Below, one piece after another: positions 1-16,487 of a stretch of 17,187 nt of DNA. How positions within the stretch are numbered: the first letter of the stretch is position 1; each line of letters begins with the position of its first letter. This DNA is from Coleofasciculus sp. B1-GNL1-01 (GTDB lineage Bacteria; Cyanobacteriota; Cyanobacteriia; Cyanobacteriales; Coleofasciculaceae): assembly GCA_040220235.1 (NCBI GenBank), contig JAVJTO010000107.1. One strand, written 5' to 3'. The notes beneath the pieces were generated by a model that saw nothing but the letters and a program-made list of their open reading frames with translations, was not told the DNA's origin and did no database searches. The translations under genes and the position numbers were made by a program.

Positions 1-138
1 GGGGAAGCAATGATACATTTTCCCTGATAATGGTGCAAAGGTATGAAAGGGTTTTATCCTTTTTCTTTGAAGATGAGCCAATGTTCATGCTACTCAAAGC
101 TTTGGTAGCCAAGGGTTTCGGTCTTGTGCAGCAAGCCC
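1..138. mobile_element. End of a MITE/IS-like element extending beyond the left edge of the window
   Basis: 123-138 reads GGGCTTGCTGCACAAG on the minus strand, 15/16 identical to 17055-17070 (GGGCTTGCTGCATAAG); both directly follow TTA. No transposase visible. Confidence 0.5.
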
Positions 139-189
139 TAATTAACGTGAACGGTGAAGAACTCGCGAGAGCGAGAAGCAAGCTACGTC
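139..189 (-). repeat. Dispersed 51-nt repeat, inverted copy of 16990-17040
   Basis: Reverse complement aligns to 16990-17040 at 43/51 positions without gaps. Confidence 0.8.
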
Positions 190-234
190 CTTTGTAAGTG
201 TAAGGGTTTGATATCATGTCCGCCGAAATAACCC

Positions 235-765
235 TTAAAAATTAATGCGACGATAGATTTCAGACAGGGGAACTTCTATGTTTAAACTGTGCAAGACGAT
301 CACCTGCTCAAGGTTAGAGTACACTTGCCACAGCCAGCGATCATTACTGCTAGGCTCAAGATTATGATACTGCTCAATGTAGGGTTCAGCTTGGCTCACC
401 AGCAGATATTCACAAAAACTAGCAAGAGAACGATATTTTCTGAACTTTTCACCTCGATCATAGGCTTCCATAGAAAGCGATAGAACTTCGACAATCAGGA
501 AAGGATTGAGAATTTCATCATTGCGCTCACCATTGAATTCTGGGAAGCCATTAACCACCATCAAATCAGTATAAGTCCCACACTGATATTCAGGAATCCA
601 AACTCGCAAGTCGCTGTTATACAAACGAAAATCGGTATCTCTGAGCAAAAACCCCAAGTAAATTAATAAGTTGCTAGCGATCGCACTATGGGCTTCAGAA
701 CCTCCCGACATTGTAATAATCTCTCCGTTGCGGTATTCATGACGTTCCGGGTGGGTTTCTTCCAT
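235..765 (-). CDS. Uma2-family (DUF820, PD-(D/E)xK-like) putative endonuclease; 5' end interrupted by the IS, possibly a pseudogene
   Basis: Motifs RHEYRNGEIITMSGGS, YTDLMVV, LIVEVLS, DRGEKF, EYLLVSQ. The frame continues upstream as LDEYRA to the IS right end at 785 and resumes beyond 2571 as RRFIT. Confidence 0.85.
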   Translation of the reverse strand: MEETHPERHEYRNGEIITMSGGSEAHSAIASNLLIYLGFLLRDTDFRLYNSDLRVWIPEYQCGTYTDLMVVNGFPEFNGERNDEILNPFLIVEVLSLSMEAYDRGEKFRKYRSLASFCEYLLVSQAEPYIEQYHNLEPSSNDRWLWQVYSNLEQVIVLHSLNIEVPLSEIYRRINF

Positions 766-768
766 CGC

Positions 769-1000
769 CCGATACTCGTCTAGCTTGACACTCCCCCTTT
801 TAGAAAAAGGGGGATTCTGTAGAACTCACATTCCACATATCCTGAGAAAACAGTTCTAATTGTCTTCCCAGGTTCCCAGGCACACGACGTTTACCCTTGC
901 GGGTGTCGTGTTTTCTCCCTTTAGGCGCTGTTAATTCAGCGCTGGGCGTTTCAAACAGATTTAACTGCTTGGGTTTCGCCGAGTCCCGACGTACCTTTGT
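769..1000 (-). ncRNA. Predicted TnpB omegaRNA/reRNA overlapping the tnpB 3' end and right end, with about 16-nt guide from the flank (784-769); 5' boundary approximate
   Basis: Inferred from the established architecture of IS200/IS605 TnpB loci; right-end hairpin 792-814 and TCAA are visible. Scaffold not folded or aligned. Confidence 0.55.
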
Positions 1001-2281
1001 TGTTACTAATTTCAAGCCATATTCAATAACGGCTTTACGCTTGATGTTTCTTGCCGCTTGCTGATCAGCATGGTCAAAATGTCCACACCTGGTACAGATA
1101 AACCGCTCTCTGTCCCGGTTGGCTTTATCAATATGACCACAGGCGCTGCACTCGATGGATGTATTCCGTGGGTTCACTTTGAGCAAGACCTTTCTCGACT
1201 TCACAGCCGCATACTCAATCTTGTTGATTAACTCTCCCCATGAGGCATCCAAAATGGAACGGTTCAATCCCCGTTTGGCTGATTGACCATTAGCCAAAAA
1301 GCGTCCAGTTCCCTCATCTGGCTTAGGCTTGCACCGCCTCACCATTCCTTGAATATTAAGGTCTTCTACGACAATCGCGTCGGCTTTTTTGACCAGCTTG
1401 TTAGCGACCTGCCACTGATAAGCGCTTCTATGGTTGGCGATTTTACGGTGTAGCTTGGCTACTGACTCTGCCCTTTTTTTACGGTTAGTAGAGCCTTTTT
1501 TAGCCCGACTGACACGCCGTTGGCGAATCAAGAGAGTCCGCTTAGTCTTCTGATTAGTGGCAAACCTAGGGTTGGGGATGTCACTGCCATCAGAGCAATG
1601 CACCAGTTTAGTTAAACCCATATCTAACCCGATCGCCGTTTTAATCTCGGAAGTGGGGCGGGGCATGAGTTCCGGAATTGACTTGTTCTCTAGGCGTACC
1701 GAGATGAACCATCCATCGGTTTTACGGCGAACTGTAACACTTCTAACGGCAAACCCATCGGGAATAGGGCGGGAATTGAAAAAGCGCATCCAACCGATTT
1801 TCGGCAGATAGATATTGCTTCCTTTGATCTTAACCCGACCTGGCTTATATTCAAACGACCGGAAGTTGCTGCGGTTTTTGAATACCGGAAAACCCCGCCC
1901 ATCAAAGAAGTTTTTATAGGCAGTGTTTAACCGAGCGATATTACGCTGTAGAACATCCGAGTCGATTGACTTGTACCAAGGACGGGCAGCTTTTAGGTCT
2001 ACCAGTGCGGCATCCTGAATCGTGCCAGCATTTCGTTTTTTACCGCTATTTTGCCAAGGATTACCCGTGGCACCATTTTTAACGATGCAGCAGGTCAATG
2101 GGTAAGCTTCGGCTTTAGTTCTTAAGCTACAGTAAGCTCCCTGAATAAACTGCTGATGATAGGTTTCAATTCGGTCAGCCAAGCACCAGTTGTAGGTCGC
2201 TCTAAGCATATCAAGCCACGACTGCATCTTGGCAGACTGGCTACCAGATGGACGCAGTTTGTAGACATAGCTTAGCATCAT
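800..2281 (-). CDS. tnpB: RNA-guided endonuclease TnpB
   Basis: N-terminal YVYKLRP...RATYNWCL, RuvC-I AIGLDMGL, RuvC-II IVVEDLNI, zinc finger CSACG/CTRCG, RuvC-III HADQQAARNI. Start probably ATG 2281 or 2278 (track uses TTG 2290). Stop codon lies within the right-end hairpin. Confidence 0.93.
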   Translation of the reverse strand: MMLSYVYKLRPSGSQSAKMQSWLDMLRATYNWCLADRIETYHQQFIQGAYCSLRTKAEAYPLTCCIVKNGATGNPWQNSGKKRNAGTIQDAALVDLKAARPWYKSIDSDVLQRNIARLNTAYKNFFDGRGFPVFKNRSNFRSFEYKPGRVKIKGSNIYLPKIGWMRFFNSRPIPDGFAVRSVTVRRKTDGWFISVRLENKSIPELMPRPTSEIKTAIGLDMGLTKLVHCSDGSDIPNPRFATNQKTKRTLLIRQRRVSRAKKGSTNRKKRAESVAKLHRKIANHRSAYQWQVANKLVKKADAIVVEDLNIQGMVRRCKPKPDEGTGRFLANGQSAKRGLNRSILDASWGELINKIEYAAVKSRKVLLKVNPRNTSIECSACGHIDKANRDRERFICTRCGHFDHADQQAARNIKRKAVIEYGLKLVTTKVRRDSAKPKQLNLFETPSAELTAPKGRKHDTRKGKRRVPGNLGRQLELFSQDMWNVSSTESPFF

Positions 2282-2282
2282 G

Positions 2283-2314
2283 ACTAACAAAGTATTATTG
2301 TTAGTATACTAACA
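2283..2314. promoter_or_regulatory. Putative bidirectional promoter/operator between tnpB and the small ORF
   Basis: Perfect 16-bp palindrome TGTTAGTATACTAACA (2299-2314) containing TATACT on both strands; third ACTAACA copy at 2283-2289. Confidence 0.55.
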
Positions 2315-2328
2315 CCTAAATCTAGGAT

Positions 2329-2505
2329 ATGCCATTCCAAAAAAGGAATAAACTGGGAGCCAAAAAATTTCTGCCCAAACCGTTGGACAAGCAACCTATA
2401 TGCTTTAAAGGCTACGAAGGACAAAAAGCACAGCTTAAAACCGTCCCCAACTGGCAGGAACGGCTAAGGGAATATGTGGAGCAACTTATAGCTGAATGCG
2501 AATAA
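2329..2505 (+). CDS. 58-aa hypothetical protein inside the IS, possibly ribbon-helix-helix DNA-binding
   Basis: Hand translation MPFQKRNKLGAKKFLPKPLDKQPICFKGYEGQKAQLKTVPNWQERLREYVEQLIAECE*; fills the space between the tnpB start and the left-end hairpin; strand-helix-helix-like pattern. Not in the ORF track. Confidence 0.7.
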   Translation: MPFQKRNKLGAKKFLPKPLDKQPICFKGYEGQKAQLKTVPNWQERLREYVEQLIAECE

Positions 2506-2575
2506 ATTCGCCGTGTCGGACTTCATCCCCGATTTAAAAATGCGGGGCTTCCGTCCTCCCGTTCTCTATTTGTGA

Positions 2576-2710
2576 TAAATCGGCGTAAAGTTAACGGTGG
2601 AGATTAGGCAACAGGCAACAGGCAACAGGCAACAGTAAGGGTTTGAGGCTTGTTGACATTTCTTAGTAAAGTGAACAGAATTGTAAGTTCAGATACTTAC
2701 ACCCAGGCTA
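2576..2710. repeat. Repeat/MITE-like segment with 4 x GGCAACA
   Basis: GGCAACA tandem at about 2607-2634; 2587-2603 (AAAGTTAACGGTGGAGA) resembles the repeat core at 146-161 and 17019-17035. Right boundary uncertain. Confidence 0.5.
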
Positions 2711-3423
2711 AAGCCTTATCCCCTGATTCCCCTTGGCAAATTCTTTCAATATGTTAAAACTGAGAAGTTAAGGCGTAGTTGTAGAGGAATGCTCACTTGC
2801 CACTCCAATTCCCCAAAGGTTATGGAGGCTCTCTTAACGGACGCATTAAACTAGATAGGGACTGGTGATTCATCCCGCGCTGAATGAAAAACGACAGCCG
2901 AGGGAACCTATCGCCAGATTAGCTAGAAATGAGTCAGGGGTGCAATTTTCGCTCTTCAAGCGAAAAATCCGTGAAAATACGGTCTACGAAATAAGTACCC
3001 ATTCGGTAAAGTCAAAGTATCTGCATCTGTTATAGTGTTGCACTCGCCAACACCGTTAGCTGATTGAACCTTTGATCTGATCAAAGGAGGTTGATGAGAA
3101 CGCGATCGCTGTTTCGGCAACGAGCGCAGGAATAGTCACTCAAGGCTTCGGGCGCTCAATGCCTTGTACCTTTGAGCGAAATTACTAGGGGACGGATTCA
3201 GGCTTTGCCCAAACCGTTCTATTTACAGCTAAACGTTTCTCGAATTAACTCCCTTGAATTGTTTAGTCAACTATCATTGACTCGGCAAAATTTCCGGGTG
3301 AGGATTAGTTCGGAGGTGAACGGTTGCGCCAAGAGTCCCATAAAAAATAGGGAGGGAATTGACCTGTCAATTTTCTGGAATTCAGACGTAACCGAGTGGT
3401 TTTAGCTAAAGCAGGTGGATGTT

Positions 3424-3429
3424 TATAAT
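3424..3429 (+). promoter_or_regulatory. Candidate -10 element for the cellulose cluster
   Basis: Perfect TATAAT about 150 nt upstream of ATG 3581; no convincing -35. Confidence 0.25.
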
Positions 3430-3580
3430 CAAAAAGCGTCACTGGCTATCCTCCATTATCTATAAGACAAGATTCAACCTTCATTCAACCAAGGTTATAT
3501 GAATCGCCAAGGACTAATTCCTTTGCTAAAGTGGCGACAGGGTGCAGGGCAAACATCAATCGGTCAAACGAACTCCGGTA

Positions 3581-6500
3581 ATGAACTTAATAGTCCCTGA
3601 TTCTCAACGATTCGGCTTGCTTAAGCCGCTGCTATGGATTAATCTGCTTAGTATTGGATCACTTATCGTTTTCTGGACGCTAGGATTACTTGAAATTAAA
3701 CCCGCTCAGGCGACTCTACCTGACTCAGAAGTCGCCAATCGGCAAGATATTGGAGAAGAAAAACCGTCCGGTGATTTCCAATTATCTCTGAATCAAGCCG
3801 ATCGCTTGCATAAATCGACTTCTGAGCTAAACCAACATCCCGATCCAGCATCCGTCTCTGCCCAAAGGGTAGAGCATGTCTCAAGACGAGATACGGCTCT
3901 ATCAACAAGCCTGAATTCTAACCCTTCAGTCGTAGCCGTTGAACTCAATGCTATAGCGCCGAAAACTTATGAAACCCTTGACCAAACCGTTCCAGCGAGA
4001 CACGAGGAACGACAAAATAACGATGATAGTCCTGCCCCCATCGATAGGGCAAAAGATAGGGGAACAGGGAGAACAGAAGCGGTAGAAACTAGAGCGTATT
4101 CCAACCGTATTGCTTCCCCCATCCCCAATCCCCCGATTCAAGCCAGTCTATCAACTCAGTCGGGTTTATCAGAACTAGCTTTAAACTCTGCTCACCAACC
4201 CTTAACGATTCAGGAAGAACCTCTTACTCCTGAATTGTCCTCTAATCAGAATTGTCACGATTCAACCCCCTGTAACCAACCCCTCGCCATTGAAACCTCA
4301 ATCCAGTTTAGGGATACCTTCGATGTGAAGGTGGCGCAGATTCCAACTCTGTTACAAAATTCATCTCCCCTCCCTGTACCGACAAACTCTATTCCTCTGG
4401 GTTCTACGGGATCTAACTCAGGACAGCTTCCTGCCTTTCCCACTCTCATTTCACCAAATGTGCAACCCCAGGGCGTGAATCCCTACAGCCAAACTTGGGG
4501 ACAGCCCTCTTCCTTTACTCAAACGCCCAATACCATCCCCACGCCCGGTACTGGGGCGGCGATGAATCCCAACTCCTACACCCAAACCTGGGGACAGTCC
4601 CTTTCTGGAACCCAAACGCCTACTTTTATTCCGATGCCCAATGCTGGGGCGGCTATGGGTAACAATCCTTATAATCAAACGGGAGGACAACCCTCGTATT
4701 TTGTCCCCACGCCTAACGTTATTCCGATGCCCGGTGCTGGGACGGCTATGGGTAACAATCCTTATAATCAAACGGGAGGACAACCCTCTTATGTTGCCCC
4801 AACGCCTAACTTTATTCCCGTGGCAACTCAGGGCTTTCCTGGAGGAGTCAACCCTTACAATCCAGGAGGGGGACAAGTTCCTTATCTGCCTCAACCTGTC
4901 ATCTTAGTTCCTGTCCAAACTATGGGAATGCCTCTAGGAGGTAATCCCTACAACCCAGGGGGAGTACAAGCTCCTTATCTGCCTCAAACCTTTATCCTTG
5001 TGCCAGTACAACCCATGGGAGTCCCGATGGGGGCAAATCCTTATAACCCCGGAGGTGGGCAGTTTGCTTACATTCTCCAAACGCCCCAAGGCGGGTCAAT
5101 GCCACCCACTCAGACTCCAGTTGGGTTTAATCCCTATAATCCCGGTGCAGGACAGTTTTATTCCTTACCCCAAAATCAAGCCGTCCAACCCGTACCGATT
5201 AACCAAAATCCGCAAAATTTTAATGGCTATAACCCAGGTGTAGGACAGTTTTCCTATCTACCCCAAAATCAAGCACCCGTTAATCCCAATTCCCTAGGTT
5301 TCAACGGTTATAACCCAGGGGCAGGGCAATTTTATTCCTTACCCCAAAACCAAGCCCCTTTACCTGCACCTGTTAATTCCAATTCCCAAAGTTTCAACGG
5401 TTATAATCCGGCGACGGGACAGTTTTCCTATTTACCGCAAAATCAAGCTCCTTTACCTGCACCTGTTAACCCAAATTCCCCAAATTTTAATGGTTATAAC
5501 CCAGGTGTAGGACAGGTTTACGCCCAGCCGCAAACGCAAGCCGCATTACCTCCACGGGTTAATCCCAATGCCAACCCAGTGAATGGGACGAATTCAGTGG
5601 CACAGTCTCCTTTCGTGTCACCCAATCCAGGTGTTGTACCCGGTACTCCTAACCCAAACCTGCCCCCTCCAGTGGCGACTCCGGCTCAGGAGTTTGACCC
5701 AACCCAGCCCAATCAACCCTCCTCTTCCCTGCTCCGCAGTACAGCATTACGAGATCCCACCTTACAGTTCCAAGGAAGCTATGTGGTACAGGGTGACTCG
5801 TCTGTGGCGCGGGCGCGGTTAGCTGGCGTCTATCCTCTAACTCCTAAGGCGCTATTTGCTGCCACATTAGATTTAACCAGCGAAGATAGTGGCTTGGCAG
5901 ATTCTCCCAACCAAGGATTAAATATTAACGAACTCTATTTTGCTACCGCTCCGTTTACCGATTTGCCGAATTTGCGCTTTGTACTGGGTCAACTAGATTT
6001 AACGTCTTACTTTGATCGCAATAGCTTTGCTAAAGATGGCGTTACTCATTTCTTTAACCCCGTTTTTCAAACCAATCCAGCCTTAAGTGCCACCGGAATT
6101 TCGTCTCGTCCTGGCGTCTTGGTCAATTGGACATTAACTGACAATATTGAAGCCAAAGCTGTTGCCTTTTCATCATCGGGAAGTATCGGTGATTTTGCCT
6201 TAGATGGATTTGCTGGAGAAGTGGGTTTACGCTATGGCAATGGCATTATTCGCGGCACCTATGCCACCGATCGCGACGCGGGTTCAGATACAGGATTTAA
6301 CGAAATTTTCTCCATCGCTCGCGGGGACAATAATTTTGGACTGGAAGAGGATGATCGGGAAGAGGCGTATGGTCTCAATGCTGAATACTTTATCCCCGAT
6401 TGGAATATGGGCATCTTTGGTCGTTATGGTCGGTATATCAACCGAGAGATTGACGAAGCGGCGACGACCTATAGTTTTGGTGTTAGCTTTTTGGATGTAT

Positions 6501-6712
6501 TTACCCAAAATGATCGCCTAGGTTTAGGCTATGGTCAGGAATTATCAAATAATCAAGGAGAAGAAGATCCCGACGTTTTAGAACTGTTTTATGATTTCCG
6601 ATTCTTACCCAATCTCCGTCTAGGATTTACTATCCAGCAACGCAATAACTTCTCCGAAACCGATGTCGGTGTGCGATTGAAAACCGAATTTGATGTGATT
6701 CCTAGAGAGTGA
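3581..6712 (+). CDS. Secreted protein with long Pro/Gln/Asn/Gly repeat region and C-terminal outer-membrane beta-barrel (carbohydrate porin/OprB-like)
   Basis: Hydrophobic N-terminus ending PAQA; last ~320 aa has alternating amphipathic strands (ELYF, LRFVLGQLD, GIFGRYG, LGLGYG, LELFYDF, LRLGFTIQ, VGVRLKTEF) and a DLTSYFDRNSFA..THFFN..F..NP segment reminiscent of cyanobacterial OprB-type porins. Start ATG 3581 or GTG 3542. Confidence 0.7.
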   Translation: MNLIVPDSQRFGLLKPLLWINLLSIGSLIVFWTLGLLEIKPAQATLPDSEVANRQDIGEEKPSGDFQLSLNQADRLHKSTSELNQHPDPASVSAQRVEHVSRRDTALSTSLNSNPSVVAVELNAIAPKTYETLDQTVPARHEERQNNDDSPAPIDRAKDRGTGRTEAVETRAYSNRIASPIPNPPIQASLSTQSGLSELALNSAHQPLTIQEEPLTPELSSNQNCHDSTPCNQPLAIETSIQFRDTFDVKVAQIPTLLQNSSPLPVPTNSIPLGSTGSNSGQLPAFPTLISPNVQPQGVNPYSQTWGQPSSFTQTPNTIPTPGTGAAMNPNSYTQTWGQSLSGTQTPTFIPMPNAGAAMGNNPYNQTGGQPSYFVPTPNVIPMPGAGTAMGNNPYNQTGGQPSYVAPTPNFIPVATQGFPGGVNPYNPGGGQVPYLPQPVILVPVQTMGMPLGGNPYNPGGVQAPYLPQTFILVPVQPMGVPMGANPYNPGGGQFAYILQTPQGGSMPPTQTPVGFNPYNPGAGQFYSLPQNQAVQPVPINQNPQNFNGYNPGVGQFSYLPQNQAPVNPNSLGFNGYNPGAGQFYSLPQNQAPLPAPVNSNSQSFNGYNPATGQFSYLPQNQAPLPAPVNPNSPNFNGYNPGVGQVYAQPQTQAALPPRVNPNANPVNGTNSVAQSPFVSPNPGVVPGTPNPNLPPPVATPAQEFDPTQPNQPSSSLLRSTALRDPTLQFQGSYVVQGDSSVARARLAGVYPLTPKALFAATLDLTSEDSGLADSPNQGLNINELYFATAPFTDLPNLRFVLGQLDLTSYFDRNSFAKDGVTHFFNPVFQTNPALSATGISSRPGVLVNWTLTDNIEAKAVAFSSSGSIGDFALDGFAGEVGLRYGNGIIRGTYATDRDAGSDTGFNEIFSIARGDNNFGLEEDDREEAYGLNAEYFIPDWNMGIFGRYGRYINREIDEAATTYSFGVSFLDVFTQNDRLGLGYGQELSNNQGEEDPDVLELFYDFRFLPNLRLGFTIQQRNNFSETDVGVRLKTEFDVIPRE
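4471..5520 (+). repeat. Intragenic repeat array, 12 units with core N(P/G)YNxxxGQ
   Basis: Units of about 30 aa counted in the translation; near-identical 93-nt-period DNA copies starting at 4628/4721 and 5351/5444. Confidence 0.9.
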
Positions 6713-6791: not shown

Positions 6792-6854
6792 AATGACGAA
6801 TGACAAATGACGAATGACGAATGACGAATGACAAATGACGAATGACAAATGACT
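6792..6854 (+). repeat. Heptamer tandem repeat AATGAC(G/A) x9; the last unit supplies the TPR gene start codon
   Basis: ATG every 7 nt from 6793 to 6849. Confidence 0.92.
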
Positions 6855-9137
6855 AAACTCATTGGATTAGGACTAGCTGGATTAGCCATTAGCGCACCTA
6901 TGGTGTACACCATCCCGGCTGTTCATGCCCAAACCGTACCCACAGCCGTTCGCCAAGCCTTTTCACTGCTGAGTCAAGGACGAGTTCAGGATGCGATCGC
7001 GGCATTTGAGGCAGCGGTACGGCGTTATCCGGATTCCTTGGATGCCAAGTTAGGGTTAGCGATCGCTCATCGACGACAGGGGAATCTTCAGCAAGCCTGG
7101 AATGCTTATCAACAAGTATTGGCACAAGATCCCACCAATGAATTAGCCTTAAAATCGGTGGGTCTATTCGGAACCTATCGACCAGAATGGCAGGTTCAGG
7201 GGATTGAAGCACTAACTACATTGCTGAATCTCAATCCCAACGATATCGAAGCCCGTGGTTTGCGAGCCCAACTCTATGGCTTTCAGCAACGGTTTGCTGA
7301 AGCTTTGGCGGATTATCAAATTGTCCTCCAAGGAAATCCCCCGCCCAATATTCTGCTGGGGGCGGCGGAAACGTTTACCAATAGTGGGAACCCGGAACGG
7401 GGATTGGAACTGTTTAACCGTTACCTGGCGACAGGCGGACAAATTACCGGGTATCCCGCCCTGGCTTACGCCCGCGCCTTACAAGAAACCGGGAATCCGG
7501 CGGCGGCTGTCCAGATTCTGGAAGGACAACTGCGATCGCCCCAACTTTTACAAGATCAACAATTAGCCATCTTCACCCGAACGGCTTTATCCCAAGCCTA
7601 TCTCGCCAATCAACAGCCAACTGAAGCGTTAAATGTCTTAACCCCCCTACAAGGCAATCCCAATGCTACCTTACCCTTAGCACGAGCCTTGAATGAGATT
7701 CGCAATCAAACGGGTAACCAAGCCCTAACCCAACAAGTCGCGAATTTGTATCGTCAGGCGCTGGATCAAACCCCCAATCCTGAACCCAAACTCTTGCGGG
7801 AAATTGCTGATGTTTTTAGTGGGTTACCAAACCAACAGCAAACGGCTCTGAATCTCTATCGGCAACTCTTAAGTTTACAACCCAATGACCGCACTCTCTT
7901 AGTTAAACAAGTCGCCTTGGAACGGGAACTGGGGTTAATTTCCGAAGCCGAACTCAAAGCCCGTCTATTGAGCGCCCTGCAACCACTACCCGCTGATCCC
8001 AATGAACGCCAACTTATCGCCCAAGCCTTAGCCGGGATTGAACCCCCAGGACCAGAATTATTACCCATTTACACCAGTCTCCTCCAATCCGGTGTCAATG
8101 TTCCTTTTTTAAATTTCCGCATCGCCCAGATTTTGTTGGAAAACGATAACCTAGCCGGAGCAAGACAGGCGTTAGCTGCTTATGCAGCAACCCCCGCAGG
8201 CGCGGAAGACTTAGCTCCCCAATTGTTAGCCGCAGAAATTGAGCGTCGGGAAGGGAACTTAGAAGCCAGCGCCCAGCGTTATCAGGCTTTAATTGCCAGC
8301 AATCCAGCCGAACGAGATATTCTCAACGCGGCGATACGAGGGCTGGCGAATGTGCGGCTGCAACAAAATCGTCCCACGGAAGCCCTGGCTGTCTTTGATC
8401 AGTTAATTGCCCGTAATCCCCAAGACACGACACTGCAACTTGCCCGCGCCAATCTAGCCTACCAAGCGGATCTAATTTCAGAATCTCAAGCCCAAGCCGT
8501 TCTCAATTACTGGCTGCAAACTCAACCCGCCACCAATGCGCCGCCAGAACTATTTACCCTGGTGGGATCATTACCGCCATCTCCCGAACGGGAGGCACTT
8601 TATAACAGACTGCTTCAGCTTGATCCAACGAATTTGCCTGTCCAAATCCGCTCAATTCAGCTAATTGCCCAACGCAGTCCCGAACAAGCCAGAGTTAGAG
8701 TCGCGCAATTAGTCGCCCGCGATCCCACCAACATCCGCAACTACTTCTTACAAGGGGAAATTGGTCAGGCGATCGATGATTTAGAACTCGCTGAACAAGC
8801 CTATCAGTTAATTTTATCCGCACAACCAGCTAATCAAGAGGCATTATCCGCCCTCGCTGGGGTTCGATTTCAACAACGACGATTGGATGAAGCCAGAAAT
8901 CTTTATTCCCAAGCCTTAGCCCTTGACCCGAATGATCAAGGAATTCGTCAAGCGATGATTGGACTGAAACGAGTTCAAGACTATCAGCTTGAGGCTTTAG
9001 CGGATTTGGAAGCGATGCAAGTCGAACAACTTCAACAAGGAGGAACGTTAGATCCAGAATTATCAAATCAAATGCAACAAATTCAGGAAGACTTTTTACA
9101 ACGACGAGGATTTCAACCCCCATGGGAACGGTTCTAG
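6849..9137 (+). CDS. Secreted TPR-repeat protein (analogue of BcsC periplasmic domain / BcsK), no beta-barrel
   Basis: Signal peptide ending AVHA; TPR-type helices throughout (AIAAFEAAVRRYP, AYQQVLAQDP, LYSQALALDP); ends RRGFQPPWERF; lies in a bcs cluster. Confidence 0.85.
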   Translation: MTKLIGLGLAGLAISAPMVYTIPAVHAQTVPTAVRQAFSLLSQGRVQDAIAAFEAAVRRYPDSLDAKLGLAIAHRRQGNLQQAWNAYQQVLAQDPTNELALKSVGLFGTYRPEWQVQGIEALTTLLNLNPNDIEARGLRAQLYGFQQRFAEALADYQIVLQGNPPPNILLGAAETFTNSGNPERGLELFNRYLATGGQITGYPALAYARALQETGNPAAAVQILEGQLRSPQLLQDQQLAIFTRTALSQAYLANQQPTEALNVLTPLQGNPNATLPLARALNEIRNQTGNQALTQQVANLYRQALDQTPNPEPKLLREIADVFSGLPNQQQTALNLYRQLLSLQPNDRTLLVKQVALERELGLISEAELKARLLSALQPLPADPNERQLIAQALAGIEPPGPELLPIYTSLLQSGVNVPFLNFRIAQILLENDNLAGARQALAAYAATPAGAEDLAPQLLAAEIERREGNLEASAQRYQALIASNPAERDILNAAIRGLANVRLQQNRPTEALAVFDQLIARNPQDTTLQLARANLAYQADLISESQAQAVLNYWLQTQPATNAPPELFTLVGSLPPSPEREALYNRLLQLDPTNLPVQIRSIQLIAQRSPEQARVRVAQLVARDPTNIRNYFLQGEIGQAIDDLELAEQAYQLILSAQPANQEALSALAGVRFQQRRLDEARNLYSQALALDPNDQGIRQAMIGLKRVQDYQLEALADLEAMQVEQLQQGGTLDPELSNQMQQIQEDFLQRRGFQPPWERF

Positions 9138-9151
9138 TGTGCGCGTCTGTA

Positions 9152-9306
9152 GGGGGAGATGGGGAAGATGGAGGAGATGGGGAAGTTAAAACTAAACTCT
9201 ACCTTACCTATTCCTTATTCCCTATTCCCTACTCCCCATTCCCTATTGCCTATTCCCTATTCCCTGACAAATGACAAATGACGAATGACAAAGGACAAAG
9301 GACAAA
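9152..9306 (+). repeat. Three adjacent tandem arrays: GGGG(A/G)AGAT-like 9-mer, CCCTATT-like heptamer, A(T/G)GACAA-like heptamer
   Basis: Visible at about 9152-9185, 9203-9264 and 9265-9306. Confidence 0.88.
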
Positions 9307-10642
9307 TCACTGGGTTCGTAGTAGGCACTTTAGTGCCAGAAGCGCTAAAGCGCTGACTACAAGCATGACTACAAGCGCTATGTTACTGCTGTTGAATCTC
9401 ACCAGTTGTGTGTCCATAAAATTCTCCGAACCTGAACCGCCGGAAGCCTCGGTTTCCCCTTCTCCCTCTCCAGTAACGGCTTCCCCCGTGGCTGATTTTC
9501 CCGTTTTATCCCCATCGCCGCCTATCCAGGATATACTCGAACAAAGCTGGGTCATCTACAGACAACAATTCATTCAAGAGGACGGACGAGTAATCGACTA
9601 CGAAGCGAGCGATCGCTCCACCTCAGAAGGACAAGCCTACGCTATGCTCAGGGCTGTATTGATTAATGACCCAACCACATTTGCCCTCACTTTAGAGTGG
9701 GCAGAAGATAACCTGCATCGACTCACAGAAACAGGTGAACCTGAAGACAATCTTTGGGTTTGGCTGTGGGGTCAAGATGACGAGGGCAATTGGGGTGCTA
9801 TTGATCGAAATTTTGCCAGCGATGCTGATATTGATGCGATTACCGCATTAATTTGGGCATACCGCCGCTGGAATCGCCCGGACTATCTAGAGTTAGCGCG
9901 AATCAAGCTGCGCGATTTGTGGGACTACTCCACCATCGCTGGACCCGATGGCAAACGTTATCTCCTTCCTGGACCCAAGGAAGCCTTTGTCCCGTCGCCA
10001 TCGACTATTTATCTGAATCCCTCCTATCTCGCCCCTTATGCGTTTCGCCTGTTTGCTCAGGTTGATCCCGAACGAGACTGGCTGAGTTTGATAGACAGTA
10101 GCTACTACGTCTTGGAAAACTCCTCTAAAGTTTCGGCGGTTGGGTTACCGAGTGACTGGATTGCTTTGGATTTACAGACCAATCAATTTCAGTCCATACC
10201 CTCACAAAGCAAACTGAAAAGCGTCTATAGCTTTGATGCGTATCGCGTCTGGTGGCGAATCGCTTGGGATGCCGAATGGTTTCAATCAACGGAGGCGTTA
10301 AATTATCTGGAAACAGCAACCCAATACCTTGAAGATCAATGGCAATCGTCCTCTCGCTTGCCTGCTCGAATTAACCTCGATGGAGAATCTTTGGTCAAAT
10401 ACGATGCCACCTCCCAATATGCCATGCTTTACCCAGCTATGCGCTTAATCAATCCGGCTATAGCTGAACAACTATTGGAGCGTAAACTTCTACCCCAATA
10501 CAATCAGGGAATTTGGGATGATGAATCTGCCTACTATACCCAAAACTTAGCCTGGATCGCCCTAGTATCACCTGACCTGGTAAAGAATTCGCAATTTTTT
10601 CAACCCCAGCAGCAGTTTTCCAGAAACGCAATAAGGGAATGA
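9278..10642 (+). CDS. bcsZ: GH8 endo-1,4-beta-glucanase, predicted lipoprotein
   Basis: GH8 motifs TSEGQAYAM, NFASDAD, NPSY, FDAYRV; lipobox LTSC (Cys codon 9407-9409) followed by a Pro/Ser linker. Start uncertain (9278 or 9365). Confidence 0.92.
   Translation: MTNDKGQRTNHWVRSRHFSARSAKALTTSMTTSAMLLLLNLTSCVSIKFSEPEPPEASVSPSPSPVTASPVADFPVLSPSPPIQDILEQSWVIYRQQFIQEDGRVIDYEASDRSTSEGQAYAMLRAVLINDPTTFALTLEWAEDNLHRLTETGEPEDNLWVWLWGQDDEGNWGAIDRNFASDADIDAITALIWAYRRWNRPDYLELARIKLRDLWDYSTIAGPDGKRYLLPGPKEAFVPSPSTIYLNPSYLAPYAFRLFAQVDPERDWLSLIDSSYYVLENSSKVSAVGLPSDWIALDLQTNQFQSIPSQSKLKSVYSFDAYRVWWRIAWDAEWFQSTEALNYLETATQYLEDQWQSSSRLPARINLDGESLVKYDATSQYAMLYPAMRLINPAIAEQLLERKLLPQYNQGIWDDESAYYTQNLAWIALVSPDLVKNSQFFQPQQQFSRNAIRE
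9314..9364. repeat. 51-nt REP-like double-hairpin element
   Basis: Imperfect terminal inverted repeats GTTCGTAGT...ACTACAAGC enclosing GGCACT-tt-AGTGCC and AGCGCT-aa-AGCGCT. Confidence 0.75.
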
Positions 10643-10678
10643 TACAGAGGTCGATAACGTCTGTCAAGGCTTGAAACC

Positions 10679-10698
10679 GTTACGAATTAATTCGTAAC
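10679..10698. repeat. Perfect 20-bp palindrome in the bcsZ-bcsB spacer
   Basis: GTTACGAATTAATTCGTAAC equals its reverse complement. Confidence 0.85.
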
Positions 10699-11064
10699 CC
10701 CGAATAATCGCATCTTATATCAGGGTGGCATCGAGTCGAATACCGATTCAGAGGACTAGAAAAATGTCACCACCGTTTCTACAAATGACCGGGTTCAGTC
10801 AACCTGTTACTCGTTGGACTGAAGCGGGAATGCTATCTACAAACCGTCCTAATTCGGGCGGGTTCCGTTGATAAATGATGTTCCTTGCCATCGTTTAGGG
10901 GAGCCTGTCCGTTTGGCACAAATCGGTTGGGTAGAGCAATAGCCAAACCCAACAGCACAAATTGGCTTGTTTAAACATCCCCGAATTCCAGATAGTCGGA
11001 ATCGCATAATTTAGTTCCCAAGCAATACTAACTGGGCATTTCCATCAACCGTAAGAGTTCTCCT

Positions 11065-13641
11065 ATGAAACGCCTGTTTCGTCACTCCCAATCTCCAAAT
11101 CCTTCCACCCATCGCGGACGTCAGCGCTCCACCCGTGTATCTACAGGAACGCGACTCGGATTGTTGCTTCTGTGTAGCGTTTTAGTCGTCGGGCTGGTGA
11201 TCACCACCAACTTTGCCGTCGCTCAAAGCGACAGTAGCCTGCAAGAGCAGGAAGATCAGTTAATTCGCGAATATACCCTACCCACCACACCCCAGAAAGA
11301 ACCTGTTTACAAACCCGCTCCGGCGGCTCCCCCGAAAAAATCTACATCGCCAACGCGCAAGCGGACAACGCCAGCCCCTAATCAACCGCCGCCGCAGAGT
11401 CAGCCCACTCGTTCAGCGCCGCCATCAACCGAACCCGAAGAACCCGCACCCGCACGTCGTTCTCCTGCACCCTCCTCACCTGCTCGCGAGGAAGAAACGG
11501 CAGAGGCTGAACCCTTACCCACAGGTGAGTACGTCCTGCAATTCAATCGCTCTCCCATCGTCGGAAACCGCTTCCGCTTCCGAGGGGTGTATTCTGAAGC
11601 CCGACTTGGTTTTACCCGTCCCCGGGGCTGGAAAATCCAAGGGGCTAAAGCCCTAATTCGTTTCCAGCATTCACCTGCCCTGATTGCCAAGGACTCCAAT
11701 CTCACAGTCCGAGTGAATGGCACGAGTGTGGGTTCAGTCCCCCTCAACCGCCAACAATCGGAAGTTGGCAGCGTCCTCTTCAACGTCCCATCCCGACTGA
11801 TTCAGGACTATAACGAACTGACGATTGTCGCCCGACAAAGTAATGACGAAGAATGTAGCGATCCGGGTGACCCCACGCTTTGGACAGAAGTACTACCGGA
11901 TTCAGAATTACAGTTTGAATATCAGCCCCAACCGATTCCGCTCAACTTTAGCCGCTACCCCTATCCTTTCTTTGACGACCTCAGTTTAGATACCAATCGC
12001 ATTGTTTATCTTCTGCCCAAGGTTAACGACACCTGGTTAACCGCCGCGTCTCGCTTTCAAGCTGCATTAGGCAGAATGGCTGAATTCCGTCCCATTGATA
12101 CGGAAATCATTAACGATTTAGAGGATATAGAGTGGGGTCAACGGTTGGTCGTTATTGGCACACCCGCCGAACAACCCGCCATAGAGGATTTGGATCTGCC
12201 CTTTAGTATCAGTGGCAATCAAATTTTAGATGGAAACCAAGTCGCTTTACCCAGTGACGTAGGTATCTTAATGATGACCACCACCTTAGATGGGGCGGTT
12301 CCCGTTTTAGTGGTGACAGGCAATGGGGCTGACGGTGTTGCCAAAGCTGCCCAGTTTTTAGTCCAGCCTGACAGCCGTAAATTTGGTACAGGTCAAGCTG
12401 TATTAGTGGATAGTCTCAAACAGGTAGACACACCATCACTCCGGAATTGGCCCGGTTATTTACCGGAAGAAAATTCCTTTACCCTCAGCGAAATTAAAAC
12501 CCAAGAAAACGGTGATCCGTTCCAAGACATCACGGTACGTGGGTCAGCGGCACCCCCAATTCCAATTGATTTTCGCGCTTTGCCGGATGACCAATTTACG
12601 CGGGGGAGTTCCATGACCCTGCGTTATAGCTATAGTCCACAAATCAATCCCCGTACCTCGGCGGTAGAAGTCCTACTGGATGGCACGTTTATCGGTGGGG
12701 CGCGATTGACCTCAGAAGACGGCGCTACCCGAAAACGATTAAAAGTGGATTTGCCCCCCCATTTAATCAAGCCCGATTCCCAACTGGAAGTGGCATTCCG
12801 ACTCAATCCCAGAGAACCGGGTGTATGTGGTAAAGTCACCGACCAACAATTGACAGGAACCCTCCATGCAGACACTAGCTTCAACCTAAACCGCCAACAA
12901 TCGGTACAACTCCCCGATTTAGGACTGTTTCAGGAAGGTTATCCCTTTGCTGCACCCCAGGATTTGTCCAGAACCGCGATTGTGGTGCCGGATTCTCCCA
13001 GTAATACGGATTTGCTGACGCTGTTAACGGTTAGCGAACGTCTGGGACGACTGAGTAAGGCAGATTCGGTTAATCTGGATGCCTATACAACGACAACGTT
13101 GCCTGCTGAAGTCCGCGAGGGACACCATTTGGTGGGAATTGGTACCAGAGAGCAATTTCCCTTCCCAGAGGTGTTTGATGGCAGTGGTTTCCGCTTGCAG
13201 GATGCTTTTTCTCGCCAGTGGAATCAAGGCAGCATTCAAGCCTTACCCGATAACGAAGGCATGATTAAGGAAATCATGTCGCCAGAGAACAAGGAACGGG
13301 TGCTATTAGCGCTAACCGCACAGACGGCGAATGGGTTAGAACGAGTGCGGCAGGTGATTAGCAAAGATCCCTGGTTTTTCCAACTTCAGGAAGACACGGT
13401 TCTGATCAGCAGCAATCAGCAAGATACGGCTAGCTATGATCCGGATGCCTACACATTGGAATTCTTAGAACGTGCGCCTTCAACCAGTCGGATTGAAAAT
13501 ACTGGACTGTTGAGTAAGGTGTCACGCTTTATTCAAGACAACTGGTTCTTTTTACCGGCTGGCATTTTCGCGATCGCGCTTTTGCTATACGGGATTTCTC
13601 AGTTCTATCTCAAGCGGCTTAGTGATCAAAAGAGTCATTAG
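11065..13641 (+). CDS. bcsB: Cellulose synthase periplasmic subunit BcsB
   Basis: Signal peptide ending AVA, Pro-rich linker, two similar beta-rich modules each with one Cys (DEEC, PGVC), YPYPF and GYPF motifs, single C-terminal TM helix; directly upstream of bcsA. Confidence 0.92.
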   Translation: MKRLFRHSQSPNPSTHRGRQRSTRVSTGTRLGLLLLCSVLVVGLVITTNFAVAQSDSSLQEQEDQLIREYTLPTTPQKEPVYKPAPAAPPKKSTSPTRKRTTPAPNQPPPQSQPTRSAPPSTEPEEPAPARRSPAPSSPAREEETAEAEPLPTGEYVLQFNRSPIVGNRFRFRGVYSEARLGFTRPRGWKIQGAKALIRFQHSPALIAKDSNLTVRVNGTSVGSVPLNRQQSEVGSVLFNVPSRLIQDYNELTIVARQSNDEECSDPGDPTLWTEVLPDSELQFEYQPQPIPLNFSRYPYPFFDDLSLDTNRIVYLLPKVNDTWLTAASRFQAALGRMAEFRPIDTEIINDLEDIEWGQRLVVIGTPAEQPAIEDLDLPFSISGNQILDGNQVALPSDVGILMMTTTLDGAVPVLVVTGNGADGVAKAAQFLVQPDSRKFGTGQAVLVDSLKQVDTPSLRNWPGYLPEENSFTLSEIKTQENGDPFQDITVRGSAAPPIPIDFRALPDDQFTRGSSMTLRYSYSPQINPRTSAVEVLLDGTFIGGARLTSEDGATRKRLKVDLPPHLIKPDSQLEVAFRLNPREPGVCGKVTDQQLTGTLHADTSFNLNRQQSVQLPDLGLFQEGYPFAAPQDLSRTAIVVPDSPSNTDLLTLLTVSERLGRLSKADSVNLDAYTTTTLPAEVREGHHLVGIGTREQFPFPEVFDGSGFRLQDAFSRQWNQGSIQALPDNEGMIKEIMSPENKERVLLALTAQTANGLERVRQVISKDPWFFQLQEDTVLISSNQQDTASYDPDAYTLEFLERAPSTSRIENTGLLSKVSRFIQDNWFFLPAGIFAIALLLYGISQFYLKRLSDQKSH

Positions 13642-13653
13642 TTATTCGTCATT

Positions 13654-13824
13654 CTCCCTCTGCTTCCCCAGCTCCCCCAGCTTCCCCAGCTTCCCCGGCT
13701 CCCCCGGCTCCCTCAGCTTCCCCAGCTTCCCCAGCTTCCCCAGCTTCCCCGGCTCCCCCGGCTCCCTCAGCGTCCCCAGCTTCCCCAGCTTCCCCAGCTT
13801 CCCCGGCTCCCCCGGCTCCCCCTG
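13654..13824 (+). repeat. 9-mer tandem array CT(T/C)CCCC(A/G)G x19, organised as 3 x 54 nt plus one unit
   Basis: Units parsed by hand; the ctccctc variant recurs at 13654, 13708 and 13762. Confidence 0.92.
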
Positions 13825-13862
13825 CCTTCTACCTTCTTATTCACTAACCCCTACCGTTGAAT

Positions 13863-16487
13863 ATGTCTTCGTCTTCGTCTAAATTCCAGCGATTTCGTCC
13901 TCGACGCCCCTTTGCCACTGACTGGCTAGTTGATGTTCTGCCTCGGTTTTTTGATCGCTCGCTCGAACGAATCGGCTTGAGCCATTTGAAATGGCTGGTT
14001 CTGTTTCTTCTGGTGATCTCGATTCCCCTGGTGATTACTCCACTAAAGGTTTGGCAACAGGGGGTTGTCGCCGTTTTGCTTTTAGCGATCGGGCAAGTGG
14101 TTGTACGGGCAGAAAACCGAGTGTCAGACAAACAAATTAGTGAGTATTATCACTTATTTTTAGTCTGGTTGAGTTTAGTCACCACTGCCCGCTATCTCTA
14201 CTATCGCCTCAACTACACGCTCAATTTTGATACCTTTCTCAATGGTTTATTTTGTGTGCTGTTGTTGACGGCAGAACTCTATGCCATCCTGACGCTCGTT
14301 CTGGCGTATTTTCAAACCCTACATATTCAAGACCGGGAACCTGTCGATTTGTCGGCATATCCGCAAGACCAGTGGCCCAAGGTGGATATCTATATTCCTA
14401 CCTATAACGAAGACGTGGAAATTGTCCGCAAAACGGCAATAGGAGCCATAGCAATTGACTATCCGGAAGACAAAAAAAAGGTGTATGTTTTAGATGATGG
14501 TCGAGCCGAAAAATATAAAGCCCGTCGCGAAAGATTGCGGAAAATGTGCGAAGAAGTCGGCTGCATCATGATGACGCGGGATAATAACGAACATGCTAAG
14601 GCAGGGAATATTAATACCGCGTTTCGCCGCACCAAAGGAGATTTGGTGATGATTCTGGACTGTGACCATATTCCGCTGCGAGATTTTCTCAAAGATACGG
14701 CTGGCTTCTTTTTTGATCCCAATGTGGCATTTGTGCAAACACCCCACTGGTTTTTTAACCCCGATCCGTTTGAGCGAAATTTGCGTACAGATGGCAGAAT
14801 TCCGGTTGGTAATGAACTGTTTTATAAGGTGCTGCAAAAAGGAAATGACTTTTGGAATGCGGCTTTCTTCTGTGGTTCAGCAGCAGTAATTCGTAAAGAA
14901 TATGCGCTACAGGTTGGCGGGATTGCCACAGAAACGGTGACTGAAGATTGTCACACGGCATTCCGACTGCATTCTCTGGGATACAGGTCAATTTACTACG
15001 ACAAAATCATGATTGCGGGTCTCGCCCCGGAGAACTTTTCCTCCTATGTGGGTCAGCAAGTCCGGTGGGCGCGGGGTATGGCGCAGATTCTGCGGATTGA
15101 AAATCCGGTGTTTAATCGGAAGCTAAATTTGACAATTCCCCAGCGGATTTGTTATTTCAGCGCCACGTCTCACTTCTTCTATGGCTATCCCCGACTCATC
15201 TATGCCCTCGCGCCAACCCTGTTCTTATTGTTTGGAATTAACCCGATTCAGGGTTTGGGATTAGAAACCTTAGCGTATGCGTTTCCTCATATCCTCCTAT
15301 CCCTCAATGCCAACTACATTACCTATAAGCATGTGCGCTTTTCCTTCTGGAATGAAATTTTTGAATTTGTGATGGCATTCCAGGCGGGGTATGTAACAAC
15401 GATGGCGTTAATTAATCCCAATCTGGGTTCTTTTAACGTCACGGACAAAGACATGACCCTGGTTAAACGGGAATTTAGTTTATCAAACTTTGATTGGCAG
15501 TCTGTACGGGGGCTGTTAGGTGTAGCAGCTTTTGTGGTGTTGGCGTTAGGGTCAGTTCCCTTTTGGTTAATCCTGCGTCCCGAAGATGCAGAAGCGGTTT
15601 TGGTTAACGCCTTGTGGTGTATCTTTAACATGATTCTGTTAATGGCAGCTTTACTGGTTGCTTTTGAACAACCCCAAGAACGCACCGCCCACCGCTTACG
15701 GCGACGGCTGGGGGCAACAATTTATAGCTATGACAAAAGTTGGAGTGGCATGACTCTGGATGTTTCGGAAACCGGAACTCGAATGCTTTTAGAAGTTGAA
15801 GGTCAACCCAACTTACCCGATGAAATTGAAGTTGAATTGGTGGGTGATTATGGGGCAAGGGTGATTATGGAGGCTCAGATTGTAGTGGCAAAGTCGGTCA
15901 ATGACCATCAAATGGAATTGGCGGTTAAGTTTATTAATGTCACCCAAGCCCAGCGAGATAATTTAACCTTGGTGACGTATTCTGATGTGAAGGAATGGTA
16001 TTCACAAACACGGGAATATGTGGATAAACCGTTGCAGTCCTTAGGATTTTTGGCTACAGGTCTTTTCCGTGCCTTCCAGGAATTTAACGTGGAGAAAGGG
16101 GCAGGAAAAGTCCGCAAACGGGTTCAAGCTTCAGCTCAATTGTTTTGGGAAGGAGACTTTTATTTGGCAACAGTGACCGCAATTGGGGCGACAAGTTTGC
16201 GATTAGAACTCGATGATTCTATTACATCGAATGCTAAACTACTTAAGCCTGATAATTTAAAGAAAATGCAGCAAGAAAAACCTTTAGTGGGCTTGTTGTT
16301 AAGTCAAGACGCCATGAGCCAATCCCGGGAGCGATTTTTAACCCAAATCCTCTCATTAGAAATTATGGTTCCAGGGGATAGCAGTAGTTCTTCTCCGAAA
16401 AAAATTGCTTTAGAGTTAAGTTTCCCTGAGCAATTTAAGGATCGGCAGGCGGCTAAAATTAAGGAGCTAGTCAGAGTTTTGCATTAA
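13863..16487 (+). CDS. bcsA: Cellulose synthase catalytic subunit (GT2 with PilZ domain)
   Basis: DDG, HAKAGN, DCD, QTPH, FFCGS, TED, QQVRW, FNVTDK gating-loop motif, multiple TM helices, PilZ RTAHR and DVSETG. Start ATG 13863 (track uses TTG 13857). Confidence 0.96.
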   Translation: MSSSSSKFQRFRPRRPFATDWLVDVLPRFFDRSLERIGLSHLKWLVLFLLVISIPLVITPLKVWQQGVVAVLLLAIGQVVVRAENRVSDKQISEYYHLFLVWLSLVTTARYLYYRLNYTLNFDTFLNGLFCVLLLTAELYAILTLVLAYFQTLHIQDREPVDLSAYPQDQWPKVDIYIPTYNEDVEIVRKTAIGAIAIDYPEDKKKVYVLDDGRAEKYKARRERLRKMCEEVGCIMMTRDNNEHAKAGNINTAFRRTKGDLVMILDCDHIPLRDFLKDTAGFFFDPNVAFVQTPHWFFNPDPFERNLRTDGRIPVGNELFYKVLQKGNDFWNAAFFCGSAAVIRKEYALQVGGIATETVTEDCHTAFRLHSLGYRSIYYDKIMIAGLAPENFSSYVGQQVRWARGMAQILRIENPVFNRKLNLTIPQRICYFSATSHFFYGYPRLIYALAPTLFLLFGINPIQGLGLETLAYAFPHILLSLNANYITYKHVRFSFWNEIFEFVMAFQAGYVTTMALINPNLGSFNVTDKDMTLVKREFSLSNFDWQSVRGLLGVAAFVVLALGSVPFWLILRPEDAEAVLVNALWCIFNMILLMAALLVAFEQPQERTAHRLRRRLGATIYSYDKSWSGMTLDVSETGTRMLLEVEGQPNLPDEIEVELVGDYGARVIMEAQIVVAKSVNDHQMELAVKFINVTQAQRDNLTLVTYSDVKEWYSQTREYVDKPLQSLGFLATGLFRAFQEFNVEKGAGKVRKRVQASAQLFWEGDFYLATVTAIGATSLRLELDDSITSNAKLLKPDNLKKMQQEKPLVGLLLSQDAMSQSRERFLTQILSLEIMVPGDSSSSSPKKIALELSFPEQFKDRQAAKIKELVRVLH

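Follow-up and report, generated by a model that had tools for sequence, protein, structure and literature searches.

What does a gene of 58 codons do in the place where elements of the IS605 group carry their transposase gene, tnpA, and does it act on the tnpB gene from which it diverges? The question is raised by a window of 17,187 nucleotides from Coleofasciculus sp. B1-GNL1-01, the window being the whole stretch of DNA that was analysed. A prediction made from the sequence alone had described a 58-aa open reading frame without an HUH motif, divergent from tnpB and inside the ends of an insertion sequence, and had proposed that it encodes a ribbon-helix-helix (RHH) repressor binding repeated heptamers and controlling both genes. 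The position and orientation of the frame (2329..2505, + strand) and the lack of an HUH motif in it are all confirmed. We consider it likely that its product is a homodimeric repressor that binds a dyad in the spacer, blocks the tnpB promoter and holds TnpB at a low level, with autoregulation likely as well. The proposal of an RHH repressor has gained comparative evidence, with the difference that the unit recognised would be one 16-bp dyad and not a set of heptamers.

The element, its ends and its target

The element is of IS605 type and non-autonomous, spans 785-2571 and has TCAC as its target; four genomes of the genus carry copies of it at other sites, and these are 82-87% identical to the window from 785 to ~2570. 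Its left end (2506..2571, - strand), with a hairpin at ~2527-2547, is 94% alike over 72 bp to that of a sister element, L210, and beside it stands the target tetranucleotide TCAC (2572..2575, - strand), the predicted TAM, which is common to L001, L002, L017 and L081, the flanks of which differ. The right end (785..816, - strand) has a hairpin at 792-814 (z -3.1) and a terminal TCAA at 785-788. It is expected to form the 3' end of the guide-RNA scaffold. The element cuts a Uma2-family gene (235..783, - strand), and 765-784 would be the guide; a search of positions 1-3600 of the window against Rfam gave no match. In its hairpin ends, its insertion 3' of a fixed tetranucleotide and its lack of a target duplication the window copy has the features of a non-autonomous IS200/IS605 element.

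In the window the Uma2 gene is without its first ~17 codons and the DNA upstream of them (~190 bp). In relatives the gene is whole, and in these empty sites TCAC stands directly before the right junction (TGAC or TCAG in 2 of the 15 listed), the left junction of the window corresponding to a second TCAC ~190 bp upstream (L116, L119). The two junctions therefore correspond to two different TCAC sites ~190 bp apart, and the DNA between them, including the start of the Uma2 gene, has been lost in the window; we infer that this happened by adjacent deletion. An apparent match of the left flank to the beginning of the Uma2 gene proved, from the empty sites, to be a coincidence. Other features were noted around these and related ends. 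The left end in L207, which is at the same site as L017, abuts by eye a CRISPR-like repeat array. Positions 2586-2700 of the window hold a repeated element with four AGGCAAC units that is dispersed over many contigs of the genome. Further along, a cellulose-synthase cluster (6849-16487) encodes a TPR protein, GH8, BcsB and BcsA with PilZ, and upstream of it is a Pro/Gln/Asn-rich frame of 1056 aa (3542-6712) without a Pfam match.

The window element has no transposase; its genome holds 13 matches to Y1_Tnp, and these proteins might act on the element in trans. In the sister element L210, which has the same TnpB (89%) as well as the same left end, a Y1 transposase gene occupies the slot of the small gene; L211 has neither small gene nor tnpA in the slot and L209 a remnant spacer. 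A Y1 probe matched one oriented locus, ~2 kb from the small gene. Within the family the left ends are, by eye, of two kinds, hairpin ends and G-rich ends without a hairpin. Classing by regular expression gave 44 G-rich, 18 hairpin, 27 other and 3 cut, and because it mislabelled some clades the end types used here were taken from reading by eye. The G-rich ends look IS607-like, with a GG junction that agrees with a published description (10.1101/2023.11.20.567912). Inspection of open reading frames in 27 loci with a G-rich end found no serine-recombinase TnpA, and relatives with such ends score below the 350-bit cut-off of IS607_TnpB.

Two loci whose left end and TnpB clades are those of the family have other small genes in the slot (L377:948-1109, - strand; L399:1058-1210, + strand); these appear RHH-like by eye, and one of them is divergent and the other co-directional. 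Neither matched Pfam, and profile comparison with the family gave probabilities of 1.0% and 0.2%. The slot opposite tnpB, which can hold a transposase or other small genes, is thus an exchangeable module. In L040, and also in L232 and L233, the 3' end of a tnpB is adjoined by a copy of the small gene that lacks its start, which suggests tandem or nested elements. In L006, L050 and L075 the small gene and operator are kept and most of tnpB is deleted.

A conserved cyanobacterial gene

The 58-aa frame is a real, conserved cyanobacterial gene. All 40 of 40 candidates were homologues of its product, the family comprises 148 representatives at 50% clustering, and the median dN/dS is 0.25 (112 pairs, picked for dS 0.15-1). 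Among 401 genomes of the phylum 34 had matches to the gene, up to 13 per genome, and all 34 belong to the same order as the window; the window's own genome has a single copy. It had been called unannotated; the family (for example WP_114083307.1 and EDX72178.1) is without a name, but relatives do carry the annotation 'hypothetical protein'. Phage records gave no match to the small gene and viral contigs gave two loci, one of them a duplicate. A search of RNA runs gave one metatranscriptome with a share of 0.09, which does not count as evidence.

The occupation of the slot by tnpA in L210 might suggest that the frame is a decayed fragment of tnpA, or else a frame that arose by chance. No protein alignment to the L210 TnpA is obtained, however, the DNA likeness being confined to the left end, and the number of homologues and their dN/dS ratio are those given above. 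Both of the outcomes that had been named as fatal to the original prediction on this point, lack of conservation and descent from tnpA, were tested and neither was found; decay or chance has next to no prospect of being the right explanation.

Linkage to tnpB

The tnpB gene of the window (800..2281, - strand) encodes 493 aa with the RuvC residues D220/E306/D406 and the zinc-finger cysteines present, and scores 255 bits against the NCBIfam model guided_TnpB (cut-off 100). The protein has a basic C-terminal tail of ~75 aa (800-1030), also seen in L001, L002 and L017, the coding sequence of which runs through the expected guide-RNA region to the right-end hairpin.

A survey of gene neighbourhoods had been proposed as a check on the association of the two genes. 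It covered 110 loci (the best 80 of 185 plus 30, the window's included), of which 109 had a match and 101 were distinct. In this sample a divergent tnpB start was found at 81 of the 101 distinct loci, and TnpB models matched 80 of these 81 divergent frames (at least 60 aa). The rest consisted of 2 loci with a tnpB fragment, 3 with tnpB elsewhere and 15 without a tnpB match, although among these 15 NCBIfam does recognise a TnpB in L007, and several others are truncated or degraded. A second set of 86 further loci was reduced to 54 by removal of 32 that were duplicate, cut or already seen, and here 37 had a divergent tnpB, 3 a fragment, 3 were too short and 11 had none. Of 80 loci in a distant subgroup 20 were inspected, giving 19 strong TnpB matches and 1 weak, and AGTATAC was kept, by eye, in 16 of the 20. 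The small gene is therefore linked to tnpB, so that absence of linkage, another outcome named as fatal to the original prediction, was tested and not found either. In L010, L027, L034, L100 and L102 the partners are of at least 480 aa and the TnpB models match their RuvC part only.

Clustering at 35% identity divides the TnpB partners into 8 clusters, and on the small-gene tree there are 16 changes among 13 partner labels. This diversity bears on the alternative that the small protein acts chiefly by binding the nuclease, as an anti-TnpB or in the manner of an antitoxin, DNA binding being secondary, since a single family serves the TnpBs of all eight clusters. Such a role has been proposed from co-folding for archaeal RHH/MazE-TnpB pairs (PMC10691335), and a VapB model from Sulfolobales is weakly matched by 38 of 98 members of the family (best E 4.3e-5), but the cut-off of that model is far from reached (14.5 of 60 bits), the two genes are divergent and not co-transcribed, and the small protein has no tail after helix B. 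We hold an action mainly on the nuclease to be very unlikely and return to a protein that would act chiefly on DNA.

A palindrome over the predicted tnpB promoter

The spacer between the two genes (2282-2328) is 47 nt long, the shortest of 72, those of the family being usually 52-64 nt. As predicted, a perfect palindrome with overlapping TATACT hexamers on both strands can be read in it directly. The predicted operator, TGTTAGTATACTAACA, is a 16-bp perfect palindrome at 2299..2314, with TATACT at 2305-2310 (+) and 2303-2308 (-). The three ACTAACA units of the original prediction are all present (2283-2289 and 2308-2314 on the + strand, 2299-2305 on the - strand), but two of them make up the palindrome's arms, and only the window copy has the third (2283..2289, + strand), where it is possibly an extra half-site; its absence from relatives led to the three-heptamer model being dropped.

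Perfect 16-bp palindromes number 494 in the 8.66 Mb of the genome, so that ~0.002 would be expected per 47-nt spacer. When the genome was searched with a matrix made from other loci, near relatives included, the window site ranked first with 21.0 bits, and none of 43 other tnpB 5' entries reached 9 bits (two loci are counted twice among these entries and an artefact entry, C27, was left out). Across the family the operator has the consensus TRTWRGTW to the left of its centre and WACYWAYA to the right. With a symmetrised matrix the dyad scored above 3 bits in 88 of 92 loci, and in 81 of the 92 loci with a usable start its best centre was 23-24 nt upstream of the ATG. At fixed offsets the dyad signal peaks at the place found by the matrix, with 5.9 of 8 pairs as against at most 3.7 at four or more bases away, and 6.2 of the 8 dyad pairs match, as against 1.5-3.5 for slid partners. 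Pair -2/+1 is invariant, pair -7/+6 is complementary in 86 of 88 loci (46 G-C, 40 A-T), and the central pair, as A-T or T-A, is so in 80 of them; pairs -4/+3 and -5/+4 are weak, being complementary in 41 and 49 of the 88. This weakness, together with the absence of a loop, led to rejection of the palindrome as a hairpin. The sister L210, which carries tnpA, has no palindrome by eye.

The conserved motif overlaps the predicted tnpB promoter, the -10 box of which is TATACT at 2303..2308 (- strand), inside the operator. On the tnpB strand of the family at least 5 of the 6 bases of the -35 hexamer TTGACA are found at one offset in 46 of 88 loci (next best offset, 13), and this -35 overlaps the start codon of the small gene. 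A TAnnnT lies 16-18 nt from it, inside the dyad, in 81 of 88, a figure partly forced by the dyad itself. In the window copy the family -35 is degenerate, leaving no good -35, and a sigma-70 scan found no site in the window spacer. In the direction of the small gene the promoter is ill-defined, with at least 4 of 6 -35 bases in 29 of 72 loci and a -10 box at 16-18 nt in 23 of 72. As to the predicted control of both genes, the promoter geometry is plain on the tnpB side but faint on that of the small gene, and a joint control can be put forward only conditionally.

Conservation of the site would by itself be as compatible with activation as with repression. The protein that binds the palindrome could in principle be an activator, or a DNA-bending accessory factor for mobilisation; some RHH proteins are reported to activate (10.64898/2026.09.24.754181), the neighbours of the family in the Atlas include MobC_2 and NikA-like clusters, and the small gene sits in the slot of a transposase. 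The site lies, however, over the predicted -10 box and ~200 bp inside the left end, and the small gene is found, by eye, with both hairpin and G-rich hairpin-less ends. We think activation or an accessory role quite unlikely and prefer a repressor.

One residue and one base pair

That the small protein would itself recognise the palindrome is suggested by covariation between the two, which had been named as a further check. In 86 loci, two frameshifted genes being excluded, residue 7 of the protein (Asn in the window) was compared with the outer pair -7/+6: Asn occurs with G/C in 44 and His with A/T in 40, the two part-exceptions being one His with G/T and one Asn with G/T. Base -7 shares an adjusted mutual information of 0.92 with the first base of codon 7 and of 0.86 with base +6. 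When no motif search is used 76 of 81 cases obey the rule, and after collapse at 80% identity 14 plus 14 of 28 do. In the second set, some members of which are near-identical to the first, the left base was as predicted in 32 of 34 (17 of 19 Asn, 15 of 15 His), the other 2 of the 19 Asn proteins having A at -7. On a tree that excludes the covarying codons (~160 columns, with many forks unresolved) there are 20 changes of residue 7, and the 9 independent pairs that lie on well-supported branches all agree (p=0.004).

The operator and codon 7 are only ~40 bp apart, TATACT occurs on both strands and modules are swapped among elements of this kind, and it might accordingly be argued that the operator and first codons are exchanged as a block, the palindrome being simply two overlapping -10 boxes. 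Against this, every other base tested against base -7, between and around the two and including the third base of codon 7, gave at most 0.21, which argues against block transfer; positions -7 and +6 are outside the predicted tnpB -10 box; and proteins identical at 48 of 52 positions differ at residue 7, -7 and +6 together. Such hitch-hiking is in our judgement highly improbable, and the covariation supports binding of the small protein to the motif.

A second set of positions tracks the centre of the dyad. Residues 23 and 25 covary with the central pair (0.6-0.7) and residue 27 with base -3 (0.45). Pro23 is accompanied by T at +0 in 56 of 57 cases, all 29 proteins without Pro23 go with a centre of TA or TG, and all 7 proteins with Asn or Ala at residue 27 are without G at -3. 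These associations are supported by 3 independent pairs each (p=0.25), which is not significant.

The predicted fold

The small protein is predicted to have a strand at residues 22-28, which includes P23, C25 and K27 and follows a conserved N-terminal arm, and helices at 32-38 and 42-57. The monomer model (pLDDT 84) places the two helices after an extended stretch. When a model from a deeper alignment was compared with 48,161 chains by VIA-align, 37 were matched over residues 17-58 at Z 2.0-3.3, of which some 30 are, we take it, RHH proteins, the fold being named in four of the 37 titles. The best match was the RHH domain of PutA (rmsd 2.1 over 38 residues). With the first model just 2 of 24 rows were of RHH type, and Foldseek gave nothing at E 0.001 with either model. 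The Atlas neighbours, largely of RHH families at 0.85-0.89 (the nearest named clusters include RHH_1, RHH_3, CcdA, NikA-like and Arc, at 0.85-0.88), serve as a lead only, and these fold scores are below the levels at which the tools are trusted (Z at most 3.3, Atlas below 0.9). Sequence searches of Pfam, PHROGs and the PDB returned nothing consistent. The spacing of residues 23, 25 and 27, every second one, is that of the outward face of an RHH strand. Taken together the models point weakly but consistently to a ribbon-helix-helix fold.

A model for control of TnpB

In the mechanism that we propose, the strands of two copies of the small protein (residues 22-28) would come together as a ribbon and read the palindrome at its centre, while the outer base pair would be reached by residue 7 of each N-terminal arm, Asn going with G/C and His with A/T. 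Both the predicted -10 box of tnpB and, probably, the region in which transcription of the repressor gene starts lie under the palindrome. Because it lies over the -10 box, binding would be expected to block RNA polymerase, and TnpB and its guide RNA would be kept low by the bound repressor. The repressor would probably limit its own expression also, a step that is less well founded than the control of tnpB. The element would move with the aid of a Y1 transposase supplied in trans and would be retained by TnpB cutting empty TCAC sites. The sequence comparisons establish the gene, its linkage to tnpB, the ends of the element, the conserved dyad and the covariation of residues with bases, and the fold, the dimer, binding, repression, autoregulation and mobilisation in trans are predictions.

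It is possible, though we would sooner doubt than assert it, that the members of the family and their operators are cassettes which can replace one another and follow a readable code, in which the outer pair is specified by arm residue 7 and the centre by strand residues 23, 25 and 27, and that the cassettes diverge so that co-resident elements avoid silencing one another, much like the immunity groups of phages. One genome holds eight loci (L020, L021, L031, L055, L056, L071, L074 and L079) with at least six combinations of residues and operator. Were this true, an arriving element would produce a burst of TnpB, which would end once enough of its repressor had accumulated.

The switch between one residue and one base pair has recurred some 20 times in nature, and a single mutation suffices as a test of it. 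It suggests a variant of the RHH proteins that reads DNA by an N-terminal arm and could provide natural repressor-operator pairs, which may be orthogonal. A function is thereby proposed for a common unannotated cyanobacterial gene, and repressor control of TnpB, shown mainly in two clostridial elements, would be extended to many TnpB lineages.

Comparison with known systems

The original prediction knew of no characterised example of such a protein, and on this point it is superseded by the Arc proteins of IS605 elements (bioRxiv 10.64898/2026.09.24.754181). According to the main text of that preprint Arc binds and represses the tnpB promoter, as judged by ChIP-seq and reporters, the repression being shown in E. 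coli and the main cases tested being from Petroclostridium xylanilyticum and Clostridium botulinum. Arc-like genes were first noted in an earlier study (10.1101/2023.11.20.567912; PMC10690162), and the published Arc sets are of 770 and 8,024 sequences; the present family may be among the 8,024 of the preprint, the main text of which contains neither 'cyanobact' nor 'palindrom'. Two supplementary files of the earlier study hold no mention of Nostoc, Scytonema or Calothrix, of one family accession or of the N-terminal motif. A search of largely open-access literature found no paper on the cyanobacterial family or its code.

As described in the preprint, arc is a small RHH gene that, like the gene studied here with its predicted RHH product, lies inside the element and is divergent from tnpB, some elements having arc and tnpB only, and its motif overlaps the divergent promoters, as the dyad does the predicted promoter here. 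By analogy the small protein would work like the IS605 Arc, with differences in detail. Arc is reported to contact DNA by N5/N7/T9 in an N-terminal strand, a feature not shared by the small protein, in which an arm of ~20 residues precedes the predicted strand; two Arc dimers sit on opposed motifs, whereas here the site is a single dyad of 16 bp, the outer pair of which varies with residue 7; and arc adjoins tnpA, which the small gene replaces.

Arc_1 and Arc_2, encoded opposite cas12k in type V-K CAST (PMC9938897, PMC12416283), are likewise cyanobacterial, of 53-72 aa, predicted to be RHH proteins and divergent just upstream of a TnpB-derived effector. Their partner is Cas12k and not TnpB; the best five matches listed per divergent partner in our loci include no Cas12k model. 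In alignment, by eye, the CAST proteins have no arm and lack the conserved Trp of the family, their helix A is about five residues longer, and RHH_5, the domain of CAST Arc_2, had no match at E 0.1 in 98 members. The archaeal RHH/MazE-TnpB pairs resemble the present one in that a small DNA-binding gene (here a predicted one) accompanies tnpB, and an antitoxin role has been proposed for it (PMC10691335), but there tnpB is downstream and non-mobile with a rearranged active site, whereas here it is divergent and mobile with D/E/D intact. CcdA is an RHH protein reported to bind GTATAC palindromes, with low affinity for a single site (PMC5389731), and GTATAC is also the commonest core of the family operators. 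In contrast to the CcdA and VapB antitoxins the small protein has no toxin partner and no antitoxin tail and scores below the curated cut-offs, searches of its own genome being empty and its neighbour being tnpB. Repressors of this kind are thus already known in other bacteria, and what is new here is that one amino acid changes together with one base pair of the palindrome.
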